Shown here: one piece after another, positions 26,961 through 58,668 of the stretch
Position numbering within the stretch: position 1 is the stretch's first letter
Layout of the letters: the number at the start of each line of letters is the position of its first letter
Origin: Schmidtea nova
Lineage: Eukaryota
Direction: 5' to 3'
Assembly: GCA_044892505.1 (NCBI GenBank)
Contig: CM097883.1
Span: 334,614,001 to 334,678,000 of the forward strand
Length of the DNA stretch: 64,000 nucleotides
Translations under genes and position numbers: made by a program
Notes under the pieces: model-generated
The model's input: only the letters and a program-made list of their open reading frames with translations
Told to the model about the DNA's origin: nothing
Databases searched by the model: none

Positions 26961-27111
26961 AAAGCTTGTCTACTCTATCTTACTTATTGTCCAATTGCTC
27001 CCTTTCTCATTTATTTTAACTATTTTCTCATTTAAATTAGCAATACCTTTATCAATGAAGGTATCGCTCCAAACTCTGGCAGAATTTGAGATGAGGTAAG
27101 ATTGTAATTCA

Positions 27112-27459
27112 TGCTGCTGTGTTGGTTTGATGTACAACTGAGATCATTAAGATTTTATACGTTAGGGTGATCTCGCCAACATAAAAACATTCCCCCGCTG
27201 ACACCCATGATGTATCCCTAACTACTCATCATGTTGGTGCTGTGTCAACGTTGTGAAATGACAAGGCAGGTGAGCAACCTTTCGGCTACTATTCCCTTGT
27301 TTATTCACGGGTCCACCACTACCGATAGAAGGTGTCTGTGGATTTCTTTCGGTCCCACTTATGCTCTTTTCCATTGTTCTAGGGTGATCTACTCTTAGCG
27401 CATCTGCAGTTTAAATGAATCCGGGTTTTAGTTACATTCGATTCTCAGACATTCCACAA
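27112..27459 (-). repeat. Terminal 348-bp LTR stub (third copy of the LTR 3' end)
   Basis: Matches 29313-29660 and 55436-55783 (one mismatch seen, at 27117); forms the outer end next to the TSD. Confidence 0.92.
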
Positions 27460-28305
27460 GTCAATTAATGAGAACTCTGCTCCCTACGAGATTTATTTTT
27501 ACGGACGAGAACTATGCTCACTATGATGTTGCGTTTTATGACGAGACCTATGCTCACTAGGATGTTATTTTTATGACGAGACCTATGCTCACTATGAGAC
27601 CTATGCTCACGAACGAAAACTCGAAATATCATCTCTCAGTGGTTGCATGTGTTGCTTCGAGATGTTCCTCTCATTGGTCACTTATGCTTCTTCGGAGAAT
27701 CTATTGTCGTGTTTCGTTAAGTCCTATCTTTCAAGAACTATGGGCAAATCCTTTCTCTTTAGGACCCCTTTTATCATTTCCTTTCTTTCAAGGAATTCAT
27801 TTAACCTCGAGTTTTCCCTTTACTCGGCTCATCTACTACACCCCTTTATTCTGGTATCTATTTATCGACTTCTCTACTTGATTTTACTTTATGCGAGCTG
27901 ATTACGTGCCTTTCATCATCTACCACATTTCTCTACTCATCTTACTCATTTCATTGCTTTCGGTCTTTACTGATCAGTTTATCCTCCTATTTTTATAGTT
28001 TTTCTGCGCGCGCCTAAACCTCGTTGAGTTGTCCCTACCTTTCACCCCAACCAAAATATATAAAAAGATCGCATTGGTCCACTGATGCACGATGTGGTGA
28101 TCAGTCACATCACAAGAGTTTTCCAATATCCGCGATTGGATCCCTTTCTACACATCTCGGGTGAGTTGATCAGTTGGTTCCCCCCAATGGGTGCTTATCG
28201 GACTACTCGTGAGTAGCTCATAATTACTTAGGTCATTTTTACCAAATCATTGTTAAACCCTCATAATTTCAACAACAACTGCACTTGTTCAAAACTTTAT
28301 TTCTA

Positions 28306-28764
28306 TTACAAGTACACTGTTATTTTCTCGGATACGGGAAGGTTGCACATAGGACATCGTTCATTTATTTTACATTCATTACAGAATCGAAAATGCCCAC
28401 ACGGCAACAACATTATCTGTATCTTATTCATTTCACAGATATAACACGTCAGATATTGTCTCGTATGTTCGGTTGTTAGTCTTATCCATTCATCGTGTTT
28501 TGTTGTTAACTGTTGCTCTAGCCTGTGGCATTCGATATTCATTTCAGGGTTGTTTAATCTTTCTCTGTACCATTGATATCGTGTTGCGGTATCCACTGGG
28601 TTCTTATTCTCGCTTATGCTCATTATCATTTCGGCTCTTTCTGTGTTGTTTGTCGGCTCGTGATATCCTCCTACCTCGAGTCGTTTTAGCTTTCTCATTA
28701 TTATCTCCGTTGTCTCGTTGTTTGTTTCGAAAAACGTTTGCATTTCTTTTATTTTGTTCTCCAT
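28306..28764 (-). CDS. 152-aa protein with C-terminal IAP-type C3HC4 RING (copy in duplicated leader)
   Basis: CYIC..IMLLPCGHFRFCNEC..RCPMC..ITVYL; identical translation to 54429-54887. Confidence 0.88.
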   Translation of the reverse strand: MENKIKEMQTFFETNNETTEIIMRKLKRLEVGGYHEPTNNTERAEMIMSISENKNPVDTATRYQWYRERLNNPEMNIECHRLEQQLTTKHDEWIRLTTEHTRQYLTCYICEMNKIQIMLLPCGHFRFCNECKINERCPMCNLPVSEKITVYL

Positions 28765-29288
28765 CCCATGAATGAATTCTCATTAATTTTGTTATCGATT
28801 TTTATTTATTTATTTATCATTCCTATTCTATGGTAGCCCTACTGTTCGGTTTTTGCTGTTCTATTTCGCGCCACTGCGTATCCCCCCGTGTTCTTGAATG
28901 TCGCCCCGACATGATCATTGTTAGTTGCTCACACTCATACCATTTTCATGCACACTTTTCAGCATACTTTTACCTTACGTCATGCATACTTTTCCTCACT
29001 CTCATGCTGTTACTCCACATACTATTCATCATACTTCATTTATCCACATATTTTCACATTCACACTTTCATTCTCATGCATACTTTTATCATGCTCATCA
29101 TTTACTTATTTCACACTCATACTTTTATTTATTATTTTCCAACCCGATTCATTCTTGCTTCAGGACCCTCAAACCCTCTGTTATTCTTTACTTTACTTTT
29201 CCTCGCTAAATTCAATTCATCCCGGTTCATGCGCTCTAAGACTATCCGCCGATATCGAATTCACTTTTTCCCACAAAGATCGATTTAA

Positions 29289-29306
29289 TTCCCGGCTGAG
29301 CCCCCA
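29289..29306 (-). promoter_or_regulatory. Second primer-binding site (tRNA-Pro type) behind the 3' LTR
   Basis: Minus strand TGGGGGCTCAGCCGGGAA, 6 nt after the LTR CA end. Confidence 0.8.
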
Positions 29307-29698
29307 AATTTATGCTGGTGTGTTGGTTTGATGTACAACTGAGATCATTAAGATTTTATACGTTAGGGTGATCTCGCCAACATAAAAACATTCCCCCGCT
29401 GACACCCATGATGTATCCCTAACTACTCATCATGTTGGTGCTGTGTCAACGTTGTGAAATGACAAGGCAGGTGAGCAACCTTTCGGCTACTATTCCCTTG
29501 TTTATTCACGGGTCCACCACTACCGATAGAAGGTGTCTGTGGATTTCTTTCGGTCCCACTTATGCTCTTTTCCATTGTTCTAGGGTGATCTACTCTTAGC
29601 GCATCTGCAGTTTAAATGAATCCGGGTTTTAGTTACATTCGATTCTCAGACATTCCACAATCAAACAAGACAAGTCAAATCATTCGTTTACAATACAT

Positions 29699-30298
29699 TT
29701 ATTTACAATTTAATAACACCGAGGGTCTAATCACATTTAGGAGTTCTTGTTCAGATAGACCACTGAGTAAGTCTACTTCTATTCCTAGGCGATCGGCATA
29801 TGCACGTCGCTCTCTCCGCTTTTTCGCTCCTAAGCGATTCCTTCTCTTTGTTCGTTTTGAGCCTGCTGGAATTGTAGCTGTCACTGCAGTAGCTGTAGCT
29901 ATGGTCGATGCATTCTCCGTTTGGGTGCTCGTAGTCACCGCTATCGTGTCTACCCATCGATTAAAGGTGCTTGCTCTGATCCCGGGGCGCAATTGCTCGG
30001 TGATGAAATCTTGGGTCGACACCTTTAAGTAATTGGCCAGCTCTAATTTCAAGGCTGCAACCTCTCTGGCATATTCATCAGCTACTCGTTCCGCCCTGTA
30101 TCTAGCTTGCAGGATGGACTTAACTCTCTCTGGGTTAAACCATGTCGTCTTGATCCTCTGGTGCTCATCATTCAGCTGTCTTAACCGACTCTCCAGAACT
30201 CGTGAACGCGCCTTATGTTCTCGCGCCTCTTGCTTGAAATCTCTGTCCTTGGTTTCAGTCATGTCTGTAAATATATCATTAATTGTGGTATATGTCAT
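29699..30298 (-). CDS. LTR-encoded 199-aa coiled-coil protein with basic tail
   Basis: Intact sense ORF, identical in both LTRs; similar to ORF 2061-2585. Confidence 0.7.
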   Translation of the reverse strand: MTYTTINDIFTDMTETKDRDFKQEAREHKARSRVLESRLRQLNDEHQRIKTTWFNPERVKSILQARYRAERVADEYAREVAALKLELANYLKVSTQDFITEQLRPGIRASTFNRWVDTIAVTTSTQTENASTIATATAVTATIPAGSKRTKRRNRLGAKKRRERRAYADRLGIEVDLLSGLSEQELLNVIRPSVLLNCK

Positions 30299-30450
30299 TT
30301 GTCTGATCTCTCGGTCATCCTGTCGCCATTAAACAACTCCACCTTATCATCATGCTATTCTTATACACTCGAAAACAAAACAAGACCGTTCTCACACAAA
30401 TACATATATTTTTATATCTACGACAATCATTCTAGTTCGGGTTGTGTTGA

Positions 30451-31086
30451 TCAACTGAATGCTCTCAATTCCTGATCCGCAGTATGTTCATCGCGACGAA
30501 TTCCATTCTCCCAATACATTTCCGGGGCTGGGTTCCAACTCAGTTTATCTTTGTAGATAAACACCTCCCAGAGGCGAAGCTCCTCGAGCTCGGGGTGTTG
30601 TTCTAATGACACGCTTCCTGGCGCGTTGGAGTAGGCGAAGACTTCCTCAGTGTAGCGACACCGAGGCCTGTCTAACAGCGTGTATCCTAATCGATGAAGA
30701 GCCCTTCCCGTCATCATTTCATTACTCAATAACCAACGGGGTCGTTGCTGTCCATCGAGGAATTGATAGAACCATCGGTCGGTTCTTGGTTCGGCAGGGT
30801 CCAAGGTGGACATCCAATCGGGGTCTCCTTCCCATCGTAATTGTATCGTGAAGGCGCAAGCCGGAATATCGGCGGCTGCACTCATATGATGTCTTATCCA
30901 CCGGCGTAGGTGTCGACGTGCAATTTCGCTAATTCGGCGGGGAGCTTCTGTTTCTCCCTCGATGGTAGGGTTCCTCTTTGGCCGGATGATGGAACGGGTA
31001 CGTCGTTTTCTCTGGATGACATAATCCTCCACGTTCATATGTCGAGAGTCGATCAGATCCGTTTGGTATCCTTCTGTCTTTATCAT
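30451..31086 (-). CDS. LTR-encoded protein of unknown function (about 211 aa from the likely ATG at 31086; ORF track calls it from 31236)
   Basis: Intact sense ORF in both LTRs; ATG preceded by CTAAC...TTATCTTCAG|CCACATG. Confidence 0.7.
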   Translation of the reverse strand: MIKTEGYQTDLIDSRHMNVEDYVIQRKRRTRSIIRPKRNPTIEGETEAPRRISEIARRHLRRWIRHHMSAAADIPACAFTIQLRWEGDPDWMSTLDPAEPRTDRWFYQFLDGQQRPRWLLSNEMMTGRALHRLGYTLLDRPRCRYTEEVFAYSNAPGSVSLEQHPELEELRLWEVFIYKDKLSWNPAPEMYWENGIRRDEHTADQELRAFS

Positions 31087-32715
31087 GTGGCTGAAGATAA
31101 GAATTTTGTTAGTGTGATAGATTTGTCGGGTGAGCACAATTATTTGTACCCGTCGACCTACTCGACTTAAGGGTGAAACTCTGTAGGCTTCAGTCGGTGG
31201 TTCAGTGTTAAACCGGCCCGATGTTCGAGATACCATGTAGGTCGTATTTTATTATCATTGGTGGTGAATGCATTTATTCTATTGAGTATACTAGTTGGCC
31301 ACGCATAATTCATCGTGCCGTTTATGATAATTTATTTTTCATCTACGATGATCACTTGACCATTTATTATGTTTGAATGTTATTATCTGCGAGACATTTT
31401 TCGTTTCTATTCACAACAATCATGCTCAATCACTCCTCAGGTTTTATCTCCAAACATCATCCTCAACTACCAATGATCATCTTATCCGGGGAACACGCTC
31501 AATCCCTTACTCATACTAATTTGAGACTGGTCATACTATCGTCTCTTATTATGGGTGTTTACCTCTCATACCTTTCGAGGATTGCAAACGGGTGTTGAAA
31601 AAACATTGTGATTTATTATTAACCTCCGACACTGGTACTATTCGTCTCTTAACTTGTGTTACTTATGGCTCGCATGACCCTACTCTCGTCGTCATCAATG
31701 TCCCTGGTTACATATACCTACCGCTCGTTACGGTATTGCTACGACGTATATCGTTCGGGCTCAATTATCTTTACCTTTCTAGATATCCTATGTGCATTTA
31801 ACCCCTTTCCGTTTACTAAGTATTTAGTAAACCTATGGTCCCGCCGCATCAGCACCTCACATGGAAATGTGTTGTGCTGAGAGGCCCAAGAATCCGTCAG
31901 GCTGTTAGGCCTCCGGAAAACCTTATTGATTTTAATATGATTATAAAATTATGAGGGTTTAAACACATCAATAACATAACTCCAAATTACCTTTTATTTC
32001 CAATTCGGTTTTACAATGTCTTCCGTAAAAGTGACTGTTGTACTGATTTACCTTCAGTAAAAATGGCATTGTCAAATACTGATTTGACTTCAGTATTTAT
32101 ACTCAACCGGTGTTGTTGGTTAGCCAATCAGCATCGAGTATGTGTGTATGTTTGCTTCATTTTTTCATGTTGTCGGCTTTTTGCTGCCTAACTTAACTCA
32201 CCGATTTATTTGGTTAATCATGCGGTAAGTTTATTTTTTGTATGATTTAATTTTTATTTGATTTTGCTTTAGCTCTTCGGTGACATCCGCCCACGCGCTG
32301 TCATATTCAGATTTTATCTGCTTCGCATGAGTGAGTTCTTGAGTTTTATTTTGTTTTGGTTAATACTTTATTTCTTTTAGATGTTGCCGCTCATTTTGTT
32401 ACGCTTTGGTGTTGGTAATTTATTTTGTTGTTATTCTGTTGTAAATTTATTTTATTGATTGTATATTATTTTCAGATGCTGCTCGATTTGGCTGGCCCAA
32501 CATCACTCGGGGTCCCCTAAAATTGCGTCCCGCAATTACATGCATATACCTACATCAACATACATAAAAAGTTCGTGACAGAACTTACATGCAAAACCGC
32601 ATAAGGTGGTAGCTTTCATACGCATTTATACAAAGTCACACATTGTCATTGTCATGTTGATATTGTTTTTAGTTTATACACAGTTCAATGTTTCTGGCTC
32701 ATAGGGGTTCGATTC

Positions 32716-34564: not shown

Positions 34565-35977
34565 CTACTCTAACAATCCTTTCGTTGACTTCGTGTTCAT
34601 CACTGTTGTACTTGTTTTCTTTTCGATCTCCAACTCTACATATAAGTTGTCGTCGTACAACATTTCCCACATTGTTTGGTGTGGTATGAATTTTGGTTCT
34701 CCCGTCGCTAATGAACATTCTGTGGTTGGTCTTTTGTAAGCTTCGTGCTTACCATCAATTTTGAATACTCTCGCTATTGTTTCTTTCGAGTTTTTCACTC
34801 TCATTATAGCCTTTGTTTCTAGTGGCCATTCTAATATGTCGTCGTAACCACCTTTACACAACGCAAAGAATAATGACACATGCGTTTCCTTTCCTGATCC
34901 ATCTCCATTTGGATAAATTCTCATCCGGACTTTGTATCCGTTTTTCCACAGATAGAATGGTGGACTTGTTACCGACACTTGACTTCCTGCTTTTGCTGCT
35001 GTGAACTTTTCGTTGAAGTTCTTGATTTTCCATATATATGGTGCAACAGGTAAACTCTCGATATCCTCCGCATCTCGTATCCACATTTGATGTCGCACGT
35101 TTACTTCTTTTACCAATGTCTCTATGACTTTGATTTTCTCCATCATTTTCTCTCTGGTGAGCTCGAATTGCTCTCTCGTTTCCAGTAATAACTCCGTCAT
35201 TATCCTCTGAGATTCAATTTCTTTTCCCAGTTTCTGTATGGTTTGCTCCATTCCGTTCAAATTTTCTGTTAACATCTCGGCGTGTTGTACCGTTTCCGTT
35301 TCCAAATGCTCTTTCATCTCTTTGCTCGTTTTCTTTACTGCACATCCTTGTTTACTCCATACGCACTTTCTTGGTCTTGATTCGCATTGTTCCCAATGTT
35401 CTCTCAACATCACTTTTTCTCCGGTTCCACAATTACTTGGACAAATTCCTCTGAATTTTCCGCACACTTTCTCTTCTGCTACGTTGAGATGTTCTGTTTC
35501 GATTACTTCTCTCGTCTCTCTTTGTTCGCAGTATTGACACTCTATTATCTCTGCTTTGCACTCCTCCTTGTGATTTTTCGACTGCTTGATGGTTATCATC
35601 TGTTGACACTTTTCACATATCACTTTCTTGTTTTCGCATTTTCCCAGATGTTGTCTTAGCTCGATTATTTGTCCTTTCCACTCGCATGGTTGGTTTATAC
35701 ACTCTGTTTTTATCTTCCAGATCTCCTTTTGTATTGCTTTGTCTGGTTTAGTCTCGTTGATTAGTAGTTTATCGTCACACTCTGGACACTTTCTTGTCTC
35801 ACTTTCACTGATTATTTGTAATATACACTTGGTGCACATCCTGCATCCACATTCCGTTTGCCTCGGTTTTAACAGTAGATTTTTACACTTTACACACGTC
35901 ACATTTACTCCCCATTGTCGATTTTCTCTTCTTAGAATCTCGATCGTTTGGTAATCCGCTTCGCTTTCTGCTCTCAT
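34565..35977 (-). CDS. Full-length intronless TRAF-family protein (RING, TRAF zinc fingers, coiled coil, MATH/TRAF-C)
   Basis: CVKC..LLKPRQTECGCRMCTKC..CPEC; CEWKG..HLGKC; YIWKIKNF..SPPFY..GYKVRMRIYPNGDGSGKETHVSLFF..YDDILEWP. Confidence 0.96.
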   Translation of the reverse strand: MRAESEADYQTIEILRRENRQWGVNVTCVKCKNLLLKPRQTECGCRMCTKCILQIISESETRKCPECDDKLLINETKPDKAIQKEIWKIKTECINQPCEWKGQIIELRQHLGKCENKKVICEKCQQMITIKQSKNHKEECKAEIIECQYCEQRETREVIETEHLNVAEEKVCGKFRGICPSNCGTGEKVMLREHWEQCESRPRKCVWSKQGCAVKKTSKEMKEHLETETVQHAEMLTENLNGMEQTIQKLGKEIESQRIMTELLLETREQFELTREKMMEKIKVIETLVKEVNVRHQMWIRDAEDIESLPVAPYIWKIKNFNEKFTAAKAGSQVSVTSPPFYLWKNGYKVRMRIYPNGDGSGKETHVSLFFALCKGGYDDILEWPLETKAIMRVKNSKETIARVFKIDGKHEAYKRPTTECSLATGEPKFIPHQTMWEMLYDDNLYVELEIEKKTSTTVMNTKSTKGLLE

Positions 35978-36067
35978 TCTACAACAATATTTACATCAAT
36001 TTCCCCATATTTTTGATTTTTTCTGGTTCTTTATTTACACGTATTTACACAGTTTTCCGCTTATTCA

Positions 36068-45500: not shown

Positions 45501-46774
45501 TCCATTTTATTATTCACATACAAGTGTAGCTTGATATCCATTGTGTCGATCTTGGGTTTCGCATTCGGTACTTCTTGCTTTGACTCATATATTCCTGGAT
45601 AGTTTGTTTCGTATACTGTTGTACTGCACTTAAGGGTTGCTTTCCCTTTTATGAATCTCATGCCCACATCCTGATTTGTGGTTATCAACACTGTTGGTGT
45701 GGTTCTCATCTCTATCCGTTTTTCTCTATGATCCGGTTTCAGTTGTCTTTTGTTCTCTAAAGCCTCTTTGAGATGTTTTGCTCTAGCTTTGTCGTCATCG
45801 TCCTCTTCTCGGAACGTTTTTCCTTGGATTTCGTCGAACTTTGCTCCTTGTAGTAGTTGTAATTGACATTCGTTCACTTTCGGTTTGTATACCAATGTTG
45901 ACATTCCCGTTTGACACATACTCCTGTCAATTTTACACATGGATAACGTTTTCATTTCTCCTGTGGTCGGTTCGAAGAATGCTTCGTAGCTTTTCAGTTC
46001 GACTATGTACGTATCCATTACCACTAAGTTGGTTGCAGGTACTCCGAATATTGGGTAGGTTTCTCCTTGACAATATCCTTCTCCTCCCGTAATCCGTCCT
46101 GCTACATAATACGTCTGCTGCAACATCATTCCTGGCTTTCCTTTTATCTTGATTTTATCTCTTGTTGTTACTTCTCCATGTTTAAATAATGCTTCGCAGT
46201 CTTCTCCTTGTAACACGATTGGTTCTCTTTCGGTTCCTGGCATGACAATTGCTGAATAATGTCCTCTCCCACAATAGAATGCGAATCTCGTCTTCTGCAC
46301 CTTGCATTCATTCACCATTGTCTTTATTAGTTCTGCCTCTTGATACACGTGGTACCATTGTTCCTTTTTAATCTCTCTCAATTCTACTGGGGTTGCATCT
46401 TTGCATTGCTCCGTACCTCTCAATGAATACTTTTCTCCCAATTTCATTTGATCACAATCAAATACTTCGAACGTTGTTACACCTTCTGTGCTTAACAACC
46501 ATACTAACATCATCATGATTATCGAGTTTAGATTCAACGTTGATCTTCCGTTTCCTTGCATCGTTTGTCTATTCTCCATTTCTCTCAATACTCCTTCAAG
46601 TTTCTTTCTCATCACGTTTGAACCCTCTTTTGTCTGGTTCTCTTTTATGAACTTTTCCCATCCTCCTTTTCTGAGGATATATGGTTCAATTTCCTTCTCG
46701 ATAATCATCGCCGTATTTTTAATATGTCTTCCCATCGGACTTGACTTCGGACTCCCTCGGCTTAGCGTTAGCAA
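36542..46774 (-). CDS. pol: 3410-codon polyprotein: Bcl-2-like tail / Env glycoprotein / PR / RT / RNase H / IN / ankyrin repeats / four Fn3-like modules / TM
   Basis: DTG at 44087-44095; YIDD at 42869-42880; TDASG RNase H; H..GH..C..C plus D,D,E integrase (MDVVG, TDQG, TERFN); DGNTALH and DGRLPIH ankyrins; first ATG at 46735, track start is TTG. Confidence 0.97.
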   Translation of the reverse strand: MLTLSRGSPKSSPMGRHIKNTAMIIEKEIEPYILRKGGWEKFIKENQTKEGSNVMRKKLEGVLREMENRQTMQGNGRSTLNLNSIIMMMLVWLLSTEGVTTFEVFDCDQMKLGEKYSLRGTEQCKDATPVELREIKKEQWYHVYQEAELIKTMVNECKVQKTRFAFYCGRGHYSAIVMPGTEREPIVLQGEDCEALFKHGEVTTRDKIKIKGKPGMMLQQTYYVAGRITGGEGYCQGETYPIFGVPATNLVVMDTYIVELKSYEAFFEPTTGEMKTLSMCKIDRSMCQTGMSTLVYKPKVNECQLQLLQGAKFDEIQGKTFREEDDDDKARAKHLKEALENKRQLKPDHREKRIEMRTTPTVLITTNQDVGMRFIKGKATLKCSTTVYETNYPGIYESKQEVPNAKPKIDTMDIKLHLYVNNKMDFLFHRGQASLQKVYYDLINNDCILNREILKTKLAVAITNPDSAMPLLPLREGHFGRVVGEAMYVYICEKTHASLAATTQLKPGQCTNELEIDYKGKVRYVQPVTRIINPPGFEPNPFNCSNAYGPLYQKPDGKWVMFPGRTEVLAPREFELMQLSKDRQFSDVDVSNNGIYSPKDLEAARQNILFPARREALLSNIVTITGGTNYREGPNYELLLSPAHFKKATENMMKAMWGRFLIFGQMMAEILGVILIIQIVRVIITQMLACFDIYKREKKVNWKMVVGFLPFLAKTMVLHGHSKDIHRIKRLLKILAKMKGTNEDVGRKFKKIMQDEQARRQLKKERKGLWERVRGYRTQDDSSNEDDDDDQGGQANINQILQYNEKSAVENWRYSAPPQSMYNEPIYKAKPNMMQMMPMTSIYPIIPEGCKVKRGGSVDSLEDTHTIAVMSTNMGPILTTAVEINGREIEAMIDTGANISAIDINYIPEKNQREIEKTNVHVIACSQETVEVAGRWFVKIKHRGAEINTYIAVIPSLSVPCIIGTDLMPDLFKEIVIDLGAMKLKDRTGKICRMKVKVASAEQIVVPARHEMMCYVKIDSTIKGDMIFEPSKKFEAKIELPMARELVTINQEGEIPINMVNFDEEDKIIYENERLGKLTPMSEIEIPDKNEKSKGESPWKIDSVLLDERQKEQLQKLLMEYKDIFAASDLDLGTCDVTLHTIPLTDETPIALRPYKLAEAQKAVAEEEVQKMLDAEVIEPSCSPWQFPVVMVKKKDGTQRFCIDYRRLNAVTKRDTYPLPDINEMLLTLQGAAYFTSLDLKSGYWQIKMKDEDKEKTAFTIGRDLYQFKKMPFGLTNAPASFQRCMNFVTHGIKQCMVYIDDLLIYSATFEDHLQDIRNVFVKLRQWKLKLKPSKCDWAKEKVTFLGHIVSAKGKEPDPRNIEKVKECPPPKTVTQIQEFLGLCGYYRKFIKDYAGISKPMQELVRQDVSFIWGKEQQAAFETLRDKLITAPILVHPDFKKPFLLATDASGYAAGAVLGQFDEEGKERVIGYYSRTFRKHERNYSVTEREAYAIILAIKHFKYLLWGHEIYITTDHQPLVWLGQHKESSSRLMRWAMQLQEYSPFIKFKAGKANANADCMSRFTFPELVNLNALKICALIAEDLDFSELRKDQLEDEELGLISKYLKEREIEIFGKNQTLREHMQKYQHRYVMEKGWLLIQDGERRLMCLPANRRKEIMTQYHDGKLGGHMSAKKTIGRLRQKYFWPTMEDDVKEWIKNCLTCATRKNVGTKWKTPLKPMPIPAEPMATIAMDVVGPLPESLKGNQYILVVTDYLTKFPEAFAIPDQKAKTVARILVEEICCRYGTPKKILTDQGTNFMSEILDEVTNYFRIAKLRTSPYHPQTNGQTERFNGTLIRMLSNYVSKHQTDWDEYINLCLMAYRMSIHAATKLSPFQLMYGRDCNLPIDLEYQPPLSQYMEVDDYVTKFKERMQEIWKTAELNIKFYQESYKDLHDQKKNVKAHDLKVGNWVIIETPEIIPGTVKKLQRPGKGPYEITTVNENNVRVRLVNNPVVRPIYVNACRCRKIPKTATLSPEKRVMTRSQTARISMLRVQQKPLTSLEDNRREAIDIKELAKKTRELIPEWKWWLDFNILAEVRKNVMEYAKDRSAHPITRTLLEEIPQTLNLQDKDGNTALHNAIKHSGNEKVKEIVEMILEGGGEIDKVNWEGITPLMMMTIHGRDDEIVKLFGNTRSSWMTKDKEGRTFLNHAIDRANHRILKYITENATWEIDEITRGSIMKQAIGVRNSKTWRILLKWKRPERDSWVIDCNEVFTRGENALLKHLLEVTYDPKTLAVLIARDTLRVSENPREYKLEDRKKELIGLIKRWCDKQWNPDMSFEHFYDIQTQHKEISKRYKELIEALKYGQFFRQAVYQDQRMKQMQTQIRSKAVLFNAKADYQERLDAIVAKAQERLSEFKENKNSLEILGAITEKLHRYAQGDYNESDIETIKNQMPVAFLLSKDGRLPIHWALRRKKENEVLEITKAMVKCEADMNTVDDNGDTIMIIAARKKTNCKVLNELYEAGTKIEGKNGKNNSIIDIAIQWNNFEMIKFIKSIKKQDDIEYLANNVKNFSLTVMIHDIEKTRALLTWANPITKEPVFKINDHMEQNQNWCIRSALLRHKKPEIVEEFLKRRDLKFTNNSKEQERMGRWKDLFRKYVNEWANAKEAIKQSRLKDIEPSKDMEIREFESSTLAVQAYERLIEEINVEDDIFKGPGGGYRDFNDKSNNEKNNEDNDNKRTENNEKERQEEPKPTKNDKKEEAEERENSGTKDESTNYGKRTGSLLLRPEMLCIAILITIIGQGEAKKQYVTLEIIRGNEVYERICWKENLRKNDTLKCILSDLKRDVIPIKGLEKEKSYIICAIKQRGEPKAPQVTACQLYKATEALKIQKWIGKRSEETTGRTEVESEKGKNQTEAEEGIRNRTEKERITKNPARKLTFQPELICVALILILIKRIMEDIDISVMTLVNVQDQRTTNGRCWGRNNEVIGISETRESREAETNEEIEITEMETEKTCELCLMEKAANGNRPGTSECKVFQAKEIIEFPKRKKQDQETIANEVVTVEIKNIGRRTIGMCWRKYIGASTSHVLPQCKTRERGIPFQLNGFEVGQAYEICVIRRIREIIQRSLECKLYKTPEQINGTRTIEMGGSRQRKRKSRRTTTTNSQRVQQTTTEGTTIENEPESTTLIIWKIHKKVLEICWTLMPNSMGKSPRNCQKTSNDKGEIIEVEMRKLKTNAEYEVCAIEEVDAQGNPQERCDTYYTPRNTTITRRIRKLEFRELSVKREQTETEETIPNRQERWEPEKVIEEVRRRQQQYEQWEAEWKGQYGVMINQSETPKMNIGKTIMGLISMGVFIGCIPLITIMIVCWRYGMRNKTIAVKWPDVKVTNYNIKLPKAVREELKRRSKHEEMWVQIEDEELYEGKPVVIV
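44600..46525 (-). other. env: Env-like glycoprotein region within the polyprotein (chuvirus G / class III gB-like)
   Basis: Signal-like SIIMMMLVWLLSTEG then FEVFDC..YSL..C, FYCGRGHYS, CILNREIL, GEAMYVYIC, CTNELEI..QPVTRII, CS..YGPLY..W and a TM at about 44720-44800; Cys pattern recalled from chuvirus-type glycoproteins. Confidence 0.78.
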
Positions 46775-47195
46775 ATTGTATATCGTATACGAGATTGCTA
46801 CCAGATATTTGCTGTCCGTCTGCTCCGTTAAGTAGTCTTTTTATTAACATCGTGGTTCCTTGCCAATCCAGATGATTCGATTTTGTTTTGGCTTTTATCA
46901 ATTCTGGCATAATCGGTGCTATTGCATTGTGTAGCATCCTTGCCTTTGTACTAGGTTCGTTTATCCTCCACAAATTCTTTAATTCCGGGTCGATTATCGC
47001 CAACACATCCATTATCGTTTTGGTGAGCCATTCTTCTCCTTGACAGACTTGATTCTCCTCTTTTCCTCTGATTTCTGCGATTTTATCCAGTTTCTTCAAG
47101 CAAATCTCCCATTGCTCTTGTCTCCTTTCTTCCCTTGTCTTTGGGATTGTTGTTGCTGGATCTATCTTTGGTCTTCCTCTTGGTCGTTTCTCCAT
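46719..47195 (-). CDS. 158-aa ORF with AT-hook (KRPRGRPK) and N-terminal half of a Bcl-2-like domain; +1 shift joins it to the polyprotein
   Basis: Overlaps the polyprotein frame; removing one A from the A5 run (plus strand T 46838-46842) fuses the two. Confidence 0.6.
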   Translation of the reverse strand: MEKRPRGRPKIDPATTIPKTREERRQEQWEICLKKLDKIAEIRGKEENQVCQGEEWLTKTIMDVLAIIDPELKNLWRINEPSTKARMLHNAIAPIMPELIKAKTKSNHLDWQGTTMLIKRLLNGADGQQISGSNLVYDIQFANAKPRESEVKSDGKTY

Positions 47196-47256
47196 TCCAG
47201 TTCCGGTTTCTACAAATCTCGTTGCTCTTCCTGTTTCTTCTGTAACATCTCTTCCT

Positions 47257-48459
47257 TTATTTCGCTCGTTGTTCTAACCATCTTTCCATTTCTTGGGTAA
47301 ACTGTGGTTGTTCTTGCTCATCTTCCGAATCGTTCACCATTTCTATGACTACCTCCTGTTCCACTCCTTGATCGTCGATTTCTGCTGGTGACGTTATTGG
47401 CATCTCTATTATTCTGTCAAAAATATTCGCCGTTGGTTTTTGAGTCAACTTCGTTAATTCTTCTATCGCTTCGTCACTGTCTGTTAATATCTCATCCACA
47501 TCATACGCTTCTGGCGGTGTTCTCTCTCTCGTTTTGATTGGTGTTGTCCTTGCTTGTCCCGAACTTGTTCCTGGGGTCATTGTTGACTTCATCGGACTTG
47601 GTGTACTCATGCTTCCTTTCGTTTTCTTTTCCTCTTTAAACTTCAGTGGTTGACCCACTATTTGTGCCACTGTTAACGTATTCATTAGATCCAATTGCAC
47701 TGGTGTCAGCCAGATTTCCAAATTATTATCCAACGATCGTCCTTGATGTTGCAGGTGGAATGGTAGTTCGTACATCAGTTTCTCTTTAATACTTTTCACT
47801 TTCTCTGTTAGCATCACCCAAAACTCTTCTTTTCTTTGATTCGGATACATTATCCTCAAATGTATTTTCTGTGGCGTTTCCTCCGTGAATTCTCTGTTTC
47901 TCCACTTTTTTATTACATCGTCTAGTTGCTCTGGACACCACTCATTAACTCTCTTGTATTCTGCTATCGCTTTGGCTACTTTTCTCAAGTTCGTTATGTC
48001 TTCTCCATTTGAGATTATGAATTGTGCTAAGCCTTTTATTGTTTGTCTTTTTCCCCGAGTATTTCCTCTCAACAGCTCGATCAATTCACTCGTTTTCTGT
48101 TTCTCCAATTCTGCCCATATTACTGCAGTTTCTGGTCCGTCTAAGTCCGTTGGTAGTAACCTCCTTGTTACCATACATATCCGTTTCGTATTCGGTTCAT
48201 ATCTGTCTTCTCCTTCTGGATCTTCTTCATACACGCCTCTTTTCACTTTCCAACATTTCTCTTTGTTATCCCATTGTTTTTCTACTGGCGTCAGTCGTCG
48301 TCTGTTAAGATCCAATTCTCCCAATATGGTCTCCCATTCTGGCTTCATCTGCCAGTTCCGATAGATTTCTACTATCTGTCTCAACTTGCGCATAACGTCC
48401 TCTTGTCGTTGCTTTCTCCCTTCTTCATCTCTTGGTGTTGTTCTTTGCACATCATCCAT
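47257..48459 (-). CDS. 400-aa ORF containing a ubiquitin/SUMO-like domain and an S/T/P-rich tail
   Basis: KIHLRIMYPNQRKEEFWV..KVKSIKEKL..LQHQGRSLDNN..TLTVAQIVG at about 47654-47869; in frame with the upstream ORF across one TAA. Confidence 0.7.
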   Translation of the reverse strand: MDDVQRTTPRDEEGRKQRQEDVMRKLRQIVEIYRNWQMKPEWETILGELDLNRRRLTPVEKQWDNKEKCWKVKRGVYEEDPEGEDRYEPNTKRICMVTRRLLPTDLDGPETAVIWAELEKQKTSELIELLRGNTRGKRQTIKGLAQFIISNGEDITNLRKVAKAIAEYKRVNEWCPEQLDDVIKKWRNREFTEETPQKIHLRIMYPNQRKEEFWVMLTEKVKSIKEKLMYELPFHLQHQGRSLDNNLEIWLTPVQLDLMNTLTVAQIVGQPLKFKEEKKTKGSMSTPSPMKSTMTPGTSSGQARTTPIKTRERTPPEAYDVDEILTDSDEAIEELTKLTQKPTANIFDRIIEMPITSPAEIDDQGVEQEVVIEMVNDSEDEQEQPQFTQEMERWLEQRAK

Positions 48460-48525
48460 TCTGATGACATGTATTGTCTGATAATTATCCCATATGCCGA
48501 TTTTATACGCTCGTCTTTTGTCACG

Positions 48526-49275
48526 TTAATTCAGTAGATGTTCTTTGTATTTTATAGCGATGTCATCCTCGAATTCATCTTCCCGTTCTCGTTGTAATAT
48601 CGTCTCATTGATGACATCTACTATTTCTCCCACTTTACTATCTGGTATTACCTCAATTTGTCTTGTCTCTTCGTTCGGTAATCTCACAGTAATCTTCAGA
48701 TCTGATACCTCTCCTCGTTTAAACATTTCTTTTCCCATCTTTGCAATTAGCTTGTCCGTTTTGAAATTCGAATGCCTCGTTTGACTTGTATCTCGTATGT
48801 TCTCGATACACTGTTTCAAATTCTCATACTCGCTTTTCGTCAATTCCTTTCGATGTTTCTTGATTTGTTGGATGATCTGTTCTATCATCGTATTCAAATT
48901 CTCTGCTAAGATTCTTTCCTTTGCCTCTAGCAACTGAGGTTTTATTCTCATCTCATAACACGTATTCGCTTCTTTGACGATTCCTTGTAAGTTCTCTTCC
49001 TTCTTGGTGTTGCATATAGATAACGTTGTTATTTCTCCTGGCCAGATGCCTGTATCTATCATATGCGTTCTTTTTCTTACCAATCCGTTTTCTGAGTATA
49101 TGAATTTGTCTTTGTACGAGCTTCCCAATCTGTCCTCAACCCATCGATATATTCCATCCGTCATTGGGTTCTTTATCCAGATTCTCGGTGAACACTCGTT
49201 TATCCATATTTGTATTACGTATTCGTTCAGTGGTTCTTTCAATAACTTCTCTATGAACTCTTGTATTACTCTCAC
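48526..49275 (-). CDS. 249-codon ORF after gag; ubiquitin-like domain runs across its stop codon
   Basis: LKITVRLPNEETRQIEVIPDSKVGEI..IKYKEHLLN*RDKRRAYKIGIWDNYQTIHVIR; GTG start overlaps the gag TGA. Confidence 0.65.
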   Translation of the reverse strand: MRVIQEFIEKLLKEPLNEYVIQIWINECSPRIWIKNPMTDGIYRWVEDRLGSSYKDKFIYSENGLVRKRTHMIDTGIWPGEITTLSICNTKKEENLQGIVKEANTCYEMRIKPQLLEAKERILAENLNTMIEQIIQQIKKHRKELTKSEYENLKQCIENIRDTSQTRHSNFKTDKLIAKMGKEMFKRGEVSDLKITVRLPNEETRQIEVIPDSKVGEIVDVINETILQREREDEFEDDIAIKYKEHLLN

Positions 49276-51704
49276 TTCTCTTTCTTGTAACCCTCTTTAT
49301 ACTTCATTTGCCATACTGCTCGTATAAACTTTCGGTATCGTTTCTTGTCGATAAACTCTTCGTTGTGGATTACTTCTAACGCGTTATCCATCAGCTTCTG
49401 AATTTCGTCTTCCCTTACTGACACTGTTTCTATTGTCTCGACTACTTCCATCTTTTTATCCTCGTTTTCCGGTTCCTTTAGCATGTCTCCTGCCAGACTG
49501 CTAACTTCGCTGTCGTCTTCTTCATCTGACAACTCTTGTCTTGGGTGTCTCAGCATCCCAATATGTGCGATTGGTCTCGCTTCGTTTTTGCTAACTTCCT
49601 GTATTAGTTCATTCTCGTTTCCCGTTATTTCAGCTTTTCCCATTCTTTTCTCCAATTCGTCTATTTCTTCCAACCGTCTTCGTCTTATTTTTCCCTTGAA
49701 TATTCGACTGATCCGAGTTTGATGTTTCACTGGTGGTGGGATTTTCTCCGGTTCCACCTCTCTGATGATCATCACGTTTATTTTCGTCTCTGTTACTCCC
49801 ATATCTTCCCATATATCAGTCATCTTTAACTTCACTTCCGGTAAATCTTCTGTTTGTAGGAATGCTTCTCTGGGCAGTTTCGTTACTCCCGGAATCATCT
49901 CATTTACTTTATTGAACAATCTTCCCACTTCTTCTTTTACATCGTATTTGAATCGCCACACGTGATCATTCGGCATGATCACCAACATTCCTCTTTGTTT
50001 GATTCTCACTTCCTCTTCTTGATTCGTTTCTTTTTCTATTTCTTTTTCTGTTTCTGTTTCTTTTTCTACTTCTTCCACTTTTTGATTCTGCTCTGCGGCT
50101 TCTACTTCCTGATTCACTTCTTCTTGTTTCTGCTCTTCGTTTCTTTTCTCTTTAATTTCTAACTCGTCTGACTCATCCTGCTGCTTCTCTTCCATCATTG
50201 CTCGCATCATGTTGATCCTTGGATTTCCCTTTTTTAACTGTTGTAATCGTTGTTGCCTGACTTGTTCTTCTTCTCGTCGTACTCTAGTCCATTCTTGATT
50301 ATGTTTCTGTTGGCTTTCTCTATTTTCTCTTTCGGCCTCAGCTTCTATTAGCTGGATCATGTTTATCTTTGGTTGAGCAGCTTGCTGGCTTCCCTTTGCC
50401 ATGCTTTCGATTATCTCGTGTAATCTGGATACTTCCTGTCTCAACTTGGCTTCTTTTATACTGGCTTCATTTGCACTGCCATTTGGGTTGTTCCGTTGTT
50501 GACCCTGATTCCCATAGCTTGGTCGATTTCCGTAATTCTGTCTATTTCCACTGTTTGACCAACTTCTCTGTTGATTACAGTCTCTTGACATGTGTCCGGT
50601 TTTTCCACATGTGTAACACGTTTTCCCATAACATCGATTTTCTGAGTGACCCTTTTGTCCACACAGTTTGCAGGCTACATTCTGAAAACAATCTTGTTGC
50701 CAATGTCCGTTTTTCCCACACGTCTGACATTGCCTATTCTGCCTGTCATTGTAACTATTTCCTCCATTCGTGTTTACTGTGATATATCCGTTATTCTTCC
50801 TCGCTGGCGGTTCTTTGAACAATCTCTGCGAATGGGGAATACTTTGATTCATGTTTCTTTTTCCTTGTTCTTCGTCTTCTGTCGTTTTTCCCATTACCGC
50901 CGTAATTCTCATGTCATTCATTGCCATATGCAATTCGAATAGGTTGGCTGCTTCCAACGCTTCATCTACTGTTTTACATCCTTTGCATCCCACTTGTGCT
51001 CTGATGTCAGGTCTCCTGAGACCTCGTACGAATAACGCTGTCATCAATTCTTCGTCTACTGGGCTTCCTCTATTGAATGCCAGTTTCGCCAACTTTCTTA
51101 ATTCACTTGCGTACACCGCATTTGACTCATTTCTCCTCTGTTTTCTTGCTGAGAACTCATCGAATGCTTCATTCAGCACTTTGTTTATCCCAAACGTCTG
51201 TTGGAAGAACTCCTTGATCGCTTCCCACGTTCTGGGTGGACTACTTCCAGATCTCTTTTCGATATACAGGTCCAATGCGCTATCTTTCAAGTATAGCGGG
51301 ATTCGATTTGCCAACGTTTCTGCACTCCATCCGCATATATCTACGAATATGCCAAATTCCTTCAGAAACGTGTCCAATCTACTGGCGTCTCCATTGAATG
51401 GTTCGCCCTTGAATTTTACTCTTAGATCCTCTCTGTGGTCACTCATCCCGATTCCACTGTCTTGGAATACTGTACTAGTTTTCTTTGCTTCTGTTTCACC
51501 ACTTGTTTCTGGATTCAACTCCTCTTCTTCACTACTCTCTGTTTCGTTATCTCTTGACTCGCTTCTTGTTCTGTTTTCACTGACTAGTTCACTGTCAATC
51601 GTTTCTACTTCGTTTCGTACTTCTGGATCCTCTGGGGTTTCTTCTTGATTCTCTTTATTACTCGAATTGTCGCTGATTTCTGCTTGTTTGTTCTTTTGTT
51701 GCAC
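49272..51704 (-). CDS. gag: Gag with capsid domain, three CCHC zinc knuckles and long acidic C-terminal extension
   Basis: PFNGD..FL..F..W..LKDSAL..W..F..RKQ..ES..Y..L..FVRGL; CQTCGKNGHWQQDC, CKLCGQKGHSENRC, CYTCGKTGHMSRDC; first ATG at 51446; frame stays open upstream to an in-frame TGA at 51894-51896. Confidence 0.95.
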   Translation of the reverse strand: MQQKNKQAEISDNSSNKENQEETPEDPEVRNEVETIDSELVSENRTRSESRDNETESSEEEELNPETSGETEAKKTSTVFQDSGIGMSDHREDLRVKFKGEPFNGDASRLDTFLKEFGIFVDICGWSAETLANRIPLYLKDSALDLYIEKRSGSSPPRTWEAIKEFFQQTFGINKVLNEAFDEFSARKQRRNESNAVYASELRKLAKLAFNRGSPVDEELMTALFVRGLRRPDIRAQVGCKGCKTVDEALEAANLFELHMAMNDMRITAVMGKTTEDEEQGKRNMNQSIPHSQRLFKEPPARKNNGYITVNTNGGNSYNDRQNRQCQTCGKNGHWQQDCFQNVACKLCGQKGHSENRCYGKTCYTCGKTGHMSRDCNQQRSWSNSGNRQNYGNRPSYGNQGQQRNNPNGSANEASIKEAKLRQEVSRLHEIIESMAKGSQQAAQPKINMIQLIEAEAERENRESQQKHNQEWTRVRREEEQVRQQRLQQLKKGNPRINMMRAMMEEKQQDESDELEIKEKRNEEQKQEEVNQEVEAAEQNQKVEEVEKETETEKEIEKETNQEEEVRIKQRGMLVIMPNDHVWRFKYDVKEEVGRLFNKVNEMIPGVTKLPREAFLQTEDLPEVKLKMTDIWEDMGVTETKINVMIIREVEPEKIPPPVKHQTRISRIFKGKIRRRRLEEIDELEKRMGKAEITGNENELIQEVSKNEARPIAHIGMLRHPRQELSDEEDDSEVSSLAGDMLKEPENEDKKMEVVETIETVSVREDEIQKLMDNALEVIHNEEFIDKKRYRKFIRAVWQMKYKEGYKKEK

Positions 51705-52408
51705 TGTTTTACTTCCTGGTCTTGTCCTCTTCGCTGTTTTTCTTTCTTCTTCTGTTAGGATAGGTTCTGTATCGACCTTTTGTTGCGCTAATTTAGCTGC
51801 TGCTTTTGCCTTTTTTGTTGCTTTTCTTTCTGCTTCTGTTAGGATTGGTATTGTACCTGCCCTTGTTTCGCGTTCCGCAATTTTGTCTATTCCTCAACTT
51901 CTTATATTCTCAACTGATTTTCTACTTCGCTTTTGCTTTGCTTCTTCTTTGATTTGTTTCCTTGGAATTGCTCTGACTGCTAGATTGCTTTGAATTGCTT
52001 GATTGATTTGTTTCCTTAAAACAAATAATCACTTACACGATACGTCCCCGTTATCGTGTTTCTCGTCCCTCTCACGGGTGTAGTCATAATTCATGAAGAT
52101 CCCCATTTTTCCCATTTCCCTTGATTTTAAGTCTATTTAAATTATCTATGCAGTCGTATCAATTATCTATTCTTTATCAAATACACCAATTACTTTTCCC
52201 CAGTTTCCCAATTACTTTGTCGCTCAGCGCTCTTATTATCCCCTTTACTTTTCTCAGGCTTCTCTGGCTCTGAGTTCAAATTTCCCCTTATCTGCCGACT
52301 ACTCTGTTTCTCAACTATTCGCTTTATTTCTTATTCACACTGCGTTTACTACTTCATTTCGATTCTCATCTCTACTCATCTTTAATTCTACTGACATTTC
52401 TCGTTGGC

Positions 52409-52867: not shown

Positions 52868-53195
52868 ACCCTTCACTTACTCACTTTACTTTACTACTCC
52901 TCTGTATGCATACTTTATCGTCGTTAGGCCACATAATCAGCTTTACTCGCATTTATCAATACCCAGGTGCGCACCTTCAACTCTCTCGTTATTAATTCGG
53001 TTTCTTTCAACCCTTATTCCTCATTATTCGCTATTCATTTTCACTATTCATCATTTATCCTCATTATCACTTATTCATCTCCATTATCGCTTATTGATCT
53101 TCACTATCCGGATAGTTTTATACTTTATTTAGTCCTCATCTGCCTCACTTCGTCGTCTTTCTCGTGGGCTTTTTACTCACTATCTTATTTCAAAC

Positions 53196-55411: not shown

Positions 55412-55429
55412 TTCCCGGCTGAGCCCCCA
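55412..55429 (-). promoter_or_regulatory. Primer-binding site, tRNA-Pro type
   Basis: TGGGGGCTCAGCCGGGAA matches the canonical tRNA-Pro PBS TGGGGGCTCGTCCGGGAT at 15/18 positions; 6 nt after the 5' LTR. Confidence 0.82.
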
Positions 55430-55821
55430 AATTTATGCTGGTGTGTTGGTTTGATGTACAACTGAGATCATTAAGATTTTATACGTTAGGGTGATCTCGC
55501 CAACATAAAAACATTCCCCCGCTGACACCCATGATGTATCCCTAACTACTCATCATGTTGGTGCTGTGTCAACGTTGTGAAATGACAAGGCAGGTGAGCA
55601 ACCTTTCGGCTACTATTCCCTTGTTTATTCACGGGTCCACCACTACCGATAGAAGGTGTCTGTGGATTTCTTTCGGTCCCACTTATGCTCTTTTCCATTG
55701 TTCTAGGGTGATCTACTCTTAGCGCATCTGCAGTTTAAATGAATCCGGGTTTTAGTTACATTCGATTCTCAGACATTCCACAATCAAACAAGACAAGTCA
55801 AATCATTCGTTTACAATACAT

Positions 55822-56421
55822 TTATTTACAATTTAATAACACCGAGGGTCTAATCACATTTAGGAGTTCTTGTTCAGATAGACCACTGAGTAAGTCTACT
55901 TCTATTCCTAGGCGATCGGCATATGCACGTCGCTCTCTCCGCTTTTTCGCTCCTAAGCGATTCCTTCTCTTTGTTCGTTTTGAGCCTGCTGGAATTGTAG
56001 CTGTCACTGCAGTAGCTGTAGCTATGGTCGATGCATTCTCCGTTTGGGTGCTCGTAGTCACCGCTATCGTGTCTACCCATCGATTAAAGGTGCTTGCTCT
56101 GATCCCGGGGCGCAATTGCTCGGTGATGAAATCTTGGGTCGACACCTTTAAGTAATTGGCCAGCTCTAATTTCAAGGCTGCAACCTCTCTGGCATATTCA
56201 TCAGCTACTCGTTCCGCCCTGTATCTAGCTTGCAGGATGGACTTAACTCTCTCTGGGTTAAACCATGTCGTCTTGATCCTCTGGTGCTCATCATTCAGCT
56301 GTCTTAACCGACTCTCCAGAACTCGTGAACGCGCCTTATGTTCTCGCGCCTCTTGCTTGAAATCTCTGTCCTTGGTTTCAGTCATGTCTGTAAATATATC
56401 ATTAATTGTGGTATATGTCAT
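55822..56421 (-). CDS. LTR-encoded 199-aa coiled-coil protein (5' LTR copy)
   Basis: Identical translation to 29699-30298. Confidence 0.7.
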   Translation of the reverse strand: MTYTTINDIFTDMTETKDRDFKQEAREHKARSRVLESRLRQLNDEHQRIKTTWFNPERVKSILQARYRAERVADEYAREVAALKLELANYLKVSTQDFITEQLRPGIRASTFNRWVDTIAVTTSTQTENASTIATATAVTATIPAGSKRTKRRNRLGAKKRRERRAYADRLGIEVDLLSGLSEQELLNVIRPSVLLNCK

Positions 56422-56573
56422 TTGTCTGATCTCTCGGTCATCCTGTCGCCATTAAACAACTCCACCTTATCATCATGCTATTCTTATACACTCGAAAACA
56501 AAACAAGACCGTTCTCACACAAATACATATATTTTTATATCTACGACAATCATTCTAGTTCGGGTTGTGTTGA

Positions 56574-57209
56574 TCAACTGAATGCTCTCAATTCCTGATC
56601 CGCAGTATGTTCATCGCGACGAATTCCATTCTCCCAATACATTTCCGGGGCTGGGTTCCAACTCAGTTTATCTTTGTAGATAAACACCTCCCAGAGGCGA
56701 AGCTCCTCGAGCTCGGGGTGTTGTTCTAATGACACGCTTCCTGGCGCGTTGGAGTAGGCGAAGACTTCCTCAGTGTAGCGACACCGAGGCCTGTCTAACA
56801 GCGTGTATCCTAATCGATGAAGAGCCCTTCCCGTCATCATTTCATTACTCAATAACCAACGGGGTCGTTGCTGTCCATCGAGGAATTGATAGAACCATCG
56901 GTCGGTTCTTGGTTCGGCAGGGTCCAAGGTGGACATCCAATCGGGGTCTCCTTCCCATCGTAATTGTATCGTGAAGGCGCAAGCCGGAATATCGGCGGCT
57001 GCACTCATATGATGTCTTATCCACCGGCGTAGGTGTCGACGTGCAATTTCGCTAATTCGGCGGGGAGCTTCTGTTTCTCCCTCGATGGTAGGGTTCCTCT
57101 TTGGCCGGATGATGGAACGGGTACGTCGTTTTCTCTGGATGACATAATCCTCCACGTTCATATGTCGAGAGTCGATCAGATCCGTTTGGTATCCTTCTGT
57201 CTTTATCAT
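56574..57209 (-). CDS. LTR-encoded protein of unknown function (5' LTR copy)
   Basis: Identical translation to the 3' LTR copy. Confidence 0.7.
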   Translation of the reverse strand: MIKTEGYQTDLIDSRHMNVEDYVIQRKRRTRSIIRPKRNPTIEGETEAPRRISEIARRHLRRWIRHHMSAAADIPACAFTIQLRWEGDPDWMSTLDPAEPRTDRWFYQFLDGQQRPRWLLSNEMMTGRALHRLGYTLLDRPRCRYTEEVFAYSNAPGSVSLEQHPELEELRLWEVFIYKDKLSWNPAPEMYWENGIRRDEHTADQELRAFS

Positions 57210-58115
57210 GTGGCTGAAGATAAGAATTTTGTTAGTGTGATAGATTTGTCGGGTGAGCACAATTATTTGTACCCGTCGACCTACTCGACTTAAGGGTGAA
57301 ACTCTGTATGCTTCAGTCGGTGGTTCAGTGTTAAACCGGCCCGATGTTCGAGATACCATGTAGGTCGTATTTTATTATCATTGGTGGTGAATGCATTTAT
57401 TCTATTGAGTATACTAGTTGGCCACGCATAATTCATCGTGCCGTTTATGATAATTTATTTTTCATCTACGATGATCACTTGACCATTTATTATGTTTGAA
57501 TGTTATTATCTGCGAGACATTTTTCGTTTCTATTCACAACAATCATGCTCAATCACTCCTCAGGTTTTATCTCCAAACATCATCCTCAACTACCAATGAT
57601 CATCTTATCCGGGGAACACGCTCAATCCCTTACTCATACTAATTTGAGACTGGTCATACTATCGTCTCTTATTATGGGTGTTTACCTCTCATACCTTTCG
57701 AGGATTGCAAACGGGTGTTGAAAAAACATTGTGATTTATTATTAACCTCCGACACTGGTACTATTCGTCTCTTAACTTGTGTTACTTATGGCTCGCATGA
57801 CCCTACTCTCGTCGTCATCAATGTCCCTGGTTACATATACCTACCGCTCGTTACGGTATTGCTACGACGTATATCGTTCGGGCTCAATTATCTTTACCTT
57901 TCTAGATATCCTATGTGCATTTAACCCCTTTCCGTTTACTAAGTATTTAGTAAACCTATGGTCCCGCCGCATCAGCACCTCACATGGAAATGTGTTGTGC
58001 TGAGAGGCCCAAGAATCCGTCAGGCTGTTAGGCCTCCGGAAAACCTTATTGATTTTAATATGATTATAAAATTATGAGGGTTTAAACACATCAATAACAT
58101 AACTCCAAATTACCT

Positions 58116-58251
58116 TTTATTTCCAATTCGGTTTTACAATGTCTTCCGTAAAAGTGACTGTTGTACTGATTTACCTTCAGTAAAAATGACATTGTCAAAT
58201 ACTGATTTGACTTCAGTATTTATACTCAACCGGTGTTGTTGGTTAGCCAAT
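58116..58251 (-). promoter_or_regulatory. Candidate LTR promoter and poly(A) region
   Basis: CCAAT (plus strand 58247-58251), minus-strand TATAAATAC (58224-58216), donor-like AAG|GTAAAT (58175/58174), AATAAA (58121-58116). Confidence 0.45.
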
Positions 58252-58668
58252 CAGCATCGAGTATGTGTGTATGTTTGCTTCATTTTTTCATATTGTCGGC
58301 TTTTTGCTGCCTAACTTAACTCACCGATTTATTTGGTTAATCATGCGGTAAGTTTATTTTTTGTATGATTTAATTTTTATTTGATTTTGCTTTAGCTCTT
58401 CGGTGACATCCGCCCACGCGCTGTCATATTCAGATTTTATCTGCTTCGCATGAGTGAGTTCTTGAGTTTTATTTTGTTTTGGTTAATACTTTATTTCTTT
58501 TAGATGTTGCCGCTCATTTTGTTACGCTTTGGTGTTGGTAATTTATTTTGTTGTTATTCTGTTGTAAATTTAGTTTATTGATTGTATATTATTTTCAGAT
58601 GCTGCTCGATTTGGCTGGCCCAACATTCATCATCCTTCTCAATTTCTACCTTAAGGCAAAATTGTATT

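Follow-up and report, generated by a model that had tools for sequence, protein, structure and literature searches.

The closest described relatives of the element treated here are the Burro/GYPSM1 retrotransposons of planarians (Arkhipova and Yushenova, PMC6431247), which exceed 30 kb and have one open reading frame (ORF) of 4,873-5,140 aa. This ORF1 comprises a gag with CCHC knuckles, Ubi2/SUMO-like and BCL-2-like regions, an env in frame between gag and pol, a dUTPase-like segment, ankyrins and MATH/TRAF; the same paper also notes copies in decay that have acquired stops and frameshifts, and a role of a Burro1 IAP in regeneration is cited in PMC13465017. GAG-ENV-POL errantiviruses with an HSV/gB-type env have been described from Nematoda, Bryozoa, and Platyhelminthes (Chary and Hayashi, PMC13524379); the accessible text gives their ORF order and makes no mention of Burro, of a single fused frame, or of ankyrins. 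The window analyzed here is a stretch of 64,000 nt from Schmidtea nova (GCA_044892505.1, contig CM097883.1, positions 334,614,001 to 334,678,000), and the subject is an element within it, on the minus strand throughout, whose reading frames are broken between gag and env (hereafter the focal copy). Very probably the broken part is the gag-to-env linker of a 31.5-kb Burro-like Ty3/gypsy element, and its four breaks are real inactivating mutations specific to the one copy.

The element spans 58625 to 27112 within a 4-bp target-site duplication (Table 1). Its protease, reverse transcriptase, RNase H, integrase (PR-RT-RH-IN) order, its TG...CA long terminal repeats (LTRs) and the target-site duplication are those of a Ty3/gypsy LTR retrotransposon. 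In overall size (~30 kb), multi-kb LTRs and a ~5,000-aa ORF1 it resembles Burro1-4/GYPSM1 of Schmidtea mediterranea and the Burro-like element of Dugesia tigrina (PMC6431247). The likeness extends to the N-terminal CCHC gag, a probable ubiquitin/SUMO-like and then a BCL-2-like region, the pol order, the ankyrins and TRAF/MATH, and to an env with homology to mononegavirus-type fusion proteins in frame between gag and pol, with a BCL-2-like motif just before it. The TRAF-like gene, however, is here a separate ORF downstream of ORF1, whereas it lies inside ORF1 in S. mediterranea and in an upstream ORF in D. tigrina. No BIR/IAP domain was matched among the 10 element ORFs scanned here, spliced or short ORFs lying outside that scan. 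The focal copy further differs in its four breaks and in the additional leader and piece of LTR end that it carries. By its architecture the element is probably of Burro type, as compared with Burro1 through the published description. With the GAG-ENV-POL errantiviruses, as far as the accessible text describes them, it shares the Ty3/gypsy pol order, a class III fusion gene between gag and pol, and many recent copies per genome (PMC13524379). The architecture is already in print, and the focal copy is one damaged copy among hundreds.

The coding region of the focal copy is divided among five consecutive minus-strand frames, the last of which runs for 10.3 kb after the breaks without a frameshift. 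An earlier, sequence-only reading had noticed this long uninterrupted ORF and had proposed that the ORFs before it are pieces of one frame, with 48526-49275 and 47257-48459 in the same phase and parted by a single TAA-C. On the minus-strand frames this is so: the TAA at 48526-48528 is all that separates 49296-48526 from 48525-47257, and the next base is C. The offsets it described, between 47257 and the 46719-47195 frame and at the start of the polyprotein, are likewise as stated. It had counted three interruptions clustered within less than 2 kb; those three do fall within 1.7 kb, but a fourth at ~49292 had been overlooked.

A genome search with 46600-49400 found 593 candidate places, 40 of which were scored and the best 30, the focal copy included, aligned. 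All four breaks are absent from each of the 29 sister copies. The linker is fully open in 25 of them, and an entire 5.8 kb in 22. Twenty-five were followed along the whole element (one on a short contig and three others were left out), and eight of these have no break from the Met at 51446 to the terminal stop, giving a continuous gag-linker-env-pol frame of ~4,970 codons, gag included; the remaining ones have their own stops, frameshifts or deletions, all at differing places. The ORFs are therefore pieces of one frame, as had been suspected, although the repaired length first suggested (more than 4200 codons) needs correction to the family value. With 64-nt searches centered on each of the four breaks, the focal copy was the only exact match among the 40 scored each time. 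Most aligned copies are uninterrupted, the outcome the sequence-only reading had tied to a lesion or error in this copy alone.

A sister subfamily, whose linker protein is 66% identical, is open across all four equivalent places, and 33 of 150 copies, counted by eye among those listed, are in stop-free frames of at least 5,600 codons. Because intact sister copies and an open sister subfamily both occur, the single frame is, judged from these alignments, the normal and old state of the family. The absence of the breaks from the sister copies examined and the single frame kept by the distant subfamily are also why the breaks are read as copy-specific lesions. Two loci of the subfamily, L042 (5102-9901) and L131 (G000:C1:293.64 Mb), nested in another copy, have open frames of ~5,650 codons. 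The start of the subfamily env is identical to the focal env in 24 of 24 aligned residues, with a further match seen by eye, which suggests that env may have been exchanged between subfamilies.

Table 1. Features of the focal copy and of its boundaries (positions in the window).
Feature	Position	Strand	Basis or remarks
5' LTR	55436..58625	-	3.19 kb, TG...CA; ends set from sister copies and junction sequences
Target-site duplication, 5' side	58626..58629		4 bp, identical to 27108-27111
Target-site duplication, 3' side	27108..27111		4 bp
3' LTR	29313..32502	-	4 mismatches to the 5' LTR
Extra leader copy behind the 3' LTR	27464..29312	-	2 mismatches to 53587-55435
Additional 348-nt piece of LTR end, last part of the element	27112..27459	-	Sister-copy and junction comparison
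Gag: capsid-like region, CCHC zinc knuckles and acidic tail; premature end in the focal copy	49272..51446 (ORF 51893-49272, first Met 51446)	-	Pfam zf-CCHC E=9.6e-11
Break 1, frameshift at the gag/linker border (~49292)	49288..49296	-	29/29 sister copies differ; 39/39 other short-search matches differ in length
Linker piece 1, with a helical region and the beginning of a probable ubiquitin-like domain	48526..49296	-	ORF, 256 aa
Probable ubiquitin/SUMO-like domain, cut by the stop	48457..48702	-	Sub-threshold Pfam match to Ubiquitin_4 (E=0.039) for one of four pieces scanned, the sister-subfamily equivalent
Break 2, premature TAA	48526..48528	-	Sense codon in 25/25 copies; no ORF end here in 29/29
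Linker piece 2: helical region, Ser/Thr/acidic stretch	47257..48525	-	ORF, 422 aa
Break 3, frameshift (~47260) and neighboring substitutions	47255..47265	-	29/29 copies differ; not a simple run-length change in 26/26 scored
Linker frame	47273-46719	-	ORF, 184 aa
Putative BCL-2-like domain, cut by break 4	46610..47135	-	Foldseek on a low-confidence model (pLDDT 47)
Break 4, frameshift (~46820)	46815..46825	-	29/29 copies differ; 39/39 other short-search matches differ in length
Open remainder: class III (Monjiviricetes-type) fusion protein, protease, RT, RNase H, integrase, ankyrin repeats, C-terminal hydrophobic segment	36542..46840	-	3,432 aa
Accessory TRAF-like ORF: RING, zinc fingers, MATH	34565..35995	-	Pfam MATH_2 E=9.3e-27, zf-TRAF, TRAF3_RING

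The breaks probably cut two linker domains, one ubiquitin-like and one BCL-2-like. A ubiquitin-like domain at the stop had been suggested from the sequence alone; the sub-threshold Ubiquitin_4 match lends this weak support, while an AlphaFold model of the region (mean predicted local distance difference test score, pLDDT, 39) had no useful fold match. A possible second ubiquitin-like repeat at ~47647-47868 (minus strand) was seen by eye in the alignment and has no Pfam match. For the segment spanning 46820, all 41 of the Foldseek matches listed are BCL-2-family chains (best E=0.032), which suggests a BCL-2-like fold, the model being of low confidence (pLDDT 47); both models were built from two-sequence alignments. 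A single relative of the linker (P0001) was found among 1.84 billion representatives, with a Pfam Bcl-2 match (E=7.7e-05) followed by the start of a fusion protein. No linker homolog was matched among 6,805 candidates in the size range 440-1,400 aa, an Atlas search with the BCL-2 region gave no usable match, and searches against PDB sequences gave nothing significant.

In the 25 sister copies private changes in the linker number 95 amino-acid-changing (N) and 96 silent (S), for an omega of ~0.4, similar to that of the remaining frame, which ranges from 0.23 to 0.67 by region. This pattern indicates that the linker is under purifying selection, and together with the frame left open at 66% protein identity in the sister subfamily it speaks against the suggestion that the linker is dispensable cargo. 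The focal copy itself has three amino-acid-changing and seven silent private changes in the linker, which argues that selection was still acting on this region in its ancestors. The idea that the linker is a mutational or relaxed hot spot in the family as a whole was also tried and rejected, with six of 35 breaks falling there where 17% are expected (P=0.82).

Among the other copies, those with more diverged LTRs have more breaks (Spearman 0.62, P=0.002, n=22). The focal copy has a near-identical repeat pair of 5,040 nt with six mismatches and no gaps, a divergence of 0.12% that is near the 22-copy median of 0.11%. The LTRs had been described as nearly identical from sequence alone, and with four mismatches between them they are, but not all of the 5,040-nt repeat is LTR: 3.19 kb is, and the rest is the leader duplicate. 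Several points weigh against the reading of the breaks as ordinary lesions of a single copy. The 16 copies with LTRs less than 0.2% apart have a mean of 0.6 breaks, so that four or more in such a copy would be unexpected (Poisson P=0.004), as would the clustering of all four in 2.5 kb of a 14.9-kb frame (P=0.016). Private small indels number five in 19 kb in the focal copy vs. 16 in 25 other copies combined, with an ordinary count of private substitutions (76; range 34-120), and because of this combination simple post-insertion decay fails to explain the copy. In addition, the difference at ~46820 is readable as a run-length change in eight of 29 copies; the break calls rest on the assembly sequence rather than on raw reads of the assembled individual; and the sister copies, being best matches, favor young copies, with 40 of 135-593 candidates scored per search, so that a rare sibling may have been missed. 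Given the hundreds of candidate places and a copy picked for its oddness, the number and clustering of its breaks make it a mild outlier. Two further private small indels lie outside ORF1, at ~51966 and ~33305, the former adjoining a private substitution as at the breaks. Import of the linker from an older, decayed copy was also considered and is not supported, the private substitutions in the linker being 2-4 per kb vs. 4.0 per kb overall.

The age of the copy could have been masked if unequal crossing-over had made the LTRs identical. This was considered: three of the six differences in the repeat pair are in its first 450 nt, as might follow from such an event, but over its 348 nt the third LTR piece shows only a single substitution and a single indel.

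There is a small but appreciable chance that the breaks are local errors of sequencing, consensus or polishing and that the real copy is uninterrupted. An excess of private small indels without one of substitutions would fit this, as would the near-identical LTRs and the lack of any second copy carrying a break. In four public contig sets from one study, with no RNA run listed among the carriers, all of the contig depth at ~47260 is of the non-focal form; however, those runs may be from other individuals without the focal insertion, and contigs drop rare variants. Among the pieces listed from these sets none bridges the focal insertion junction, and for that reason they cannot show whether the focal copy is present in those samples. 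The kinds of change involved argue for real mutations instead. Typical long-read errors are changes in homopolymer length. Two of the three indels among the breaks are not (the difference at ~49292 in 29 of 29 copies), and one break, the stop, is a substitution. The repeat pair without a gap in 5,040 nt and the following 10.3 kb without a frameshift also speak against local errors.

If the breaks are real, as preferred here, most of them may date from insertion or just before it, stemming from an error-prone copying event that would have left the element "dead on arrival." This part of the scheme is less sure; it is suggested because the LTRs are 0.12% apart, three of the four breaks either have neighboring changes or are not run-length slips, and the 3' end is abnormal, as would fit faulty reverse transcription. 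From 32502 to 27112 on the minus strand the order is LTR, 1.85-kb leader copy, and the last 348 nt of an LTR, with a single 4-bp target-site duplication enclosing the whole, whereas in sister copies the 3' LTR runs into flanking sequence. The arrangement may reflect mis-transfer of strong-stop cDNA made on a co-packaged RNA, or else a tandem that has collapsed. The 348-nt piece begins ~40 nt past an AATAAA at 29703, and an inner variant of it is also found in three of 25 other copies. In the scheme proposed, intact copies would make one polyprotein of ~4,970 residues, to be cut by the aspartic protease of the element and by host signal peptidase, so that no recoding would be needed. Translation of the focal copy would stop at the end of gag, and it could presumably transpose anew only with help from another copy.

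It is very unlikely that the focal copy comes from a variant lineage that stayed mobile by producing gag and Env-Pol apart from each other (for instance through a spliced RNA or by starting internally at Met 46735) while its linker decayed. In its favor, none of the four breaks touches the gag core or the 10.3-kb env-pol frame, the clustering noted above, and the LTRs indicate a recent insertion. Among the copies scored no sibling insertion carries any of the breaks, however, and the private changes run opposite to expectation: those in the linker give no sign of relaxed selection, and those in env plus pol (N 10, S 5) none of tighter constraint, though these numbers are small. Equally doubtful is the broader interpretation that this copy captures a giant single-ORF retroelement in the course of dividing into a gag gene and an env-pol gene, its lineage having dropped the ubiquitin-like/BCL-2-like linker and yet inserted recently, with Env-Pol made from its own start or a spliced RNA.

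Programmed readthrough and frameshifting, proposed from the sequence alone as a means of dosing Env-Pol relative to Gag, are rejected as extremely unlikely, since the breaks are private to one copy (absent from 29/29 sister copies and the sister subfamily) and neither a slippery heptamer nor a stimulatory structure was found at them. None of the three overlaps has an X XXY YYZ heptamer in frame (+1-type motifs were sought by eye only), and the 80 nt downstream of each of the four sites are not more stably folded than shuffled sequence (z -0.02 to +1.18, pseudoknots being outside the model). Two breaks lie within probable folded domains, and four inefficient serial steps would leave almost no Pol. 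What recommended the idea is that break 1 is at the end of gag, where other retrotransposons recode (PMC7175516), and that the stop has C as its next base. According to the same source, Ty1-Ty4 use a +1 frameshift and Tca2 a stop codon, while Ty5 is a single-ORF element. The present family shares with the recoding elements a need for more Gag than Pol and with Ty5 its one frame; in recoding elements one signal, fixed throughout the family, lies between gag and pol, in contrast to four breaks in one copy without a signal. Near the gag end of intact copies, no slippery site able to give Gag alone was found at any of 31 loci.

In sister copies the gag frame is not cut short as it is here but goes on into the linker. 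Pfam matches in the 3,432-aa frame include PF24664 (E=1.7e-66), upstream of RVP, and RVP, RVT_1, RT_RNaseH, Integrase_H2C2, rve, and Ank_2 (E=3e-18); the 220-residue interval from PR to RT, the place of the dUTPase-like segment in Burro, had no Pfam match at E<=0.1. After ORF1, 32716-35995 (minus strand) holds three accessory ORFs: the TRAF-like one of 476 aa, a coiled-coil protein of 396 aa, and a 176-aa protein with two hydrophobic segments. A deletion at ~33822-35634 is common to two of 25 sister copies.

The LTR interior contains two ORFs of 209 and 265 aa (29699-30328 and 30451-31248; also 55822-57371), with no significant match in a Pfam scan. The LTR part that holds them has a similarity of only 72-90% to sister-copy LTRs, compared to ~95% for the internal region. 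Tandem arrays occupy 52399-52887 and 53174-53660 in the leader, with units of ~84-96 nt and 19 nt. At the LTR end, 27158-27345 has a contig depth 20-50x that of the internal region in all four public runs, which suggests a very abundant short repeat sharing that sequence. Outside the element, an intact-looking hAT transposase ORF (zf-BED, hAT dimerization) is found at 22628-24547 on the plus strand, near a 55-nt palindrome at 21451-21561.

The focal copy as such matters little. Its relatives add natural, rather than reconstructed, evidence that two subfamilies in one genome have single gag-env-pol frames of ~4,970 and ~5,650 codons. The literature searched, which included few subscription papers, held no answer for Burro elements on either Gag excess or Pol release. 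The comparison sharpens the question of how, without recoding, such an element would make more Gag than Pol and release Pol into the cytosol from behind a membrane-spanning Env.

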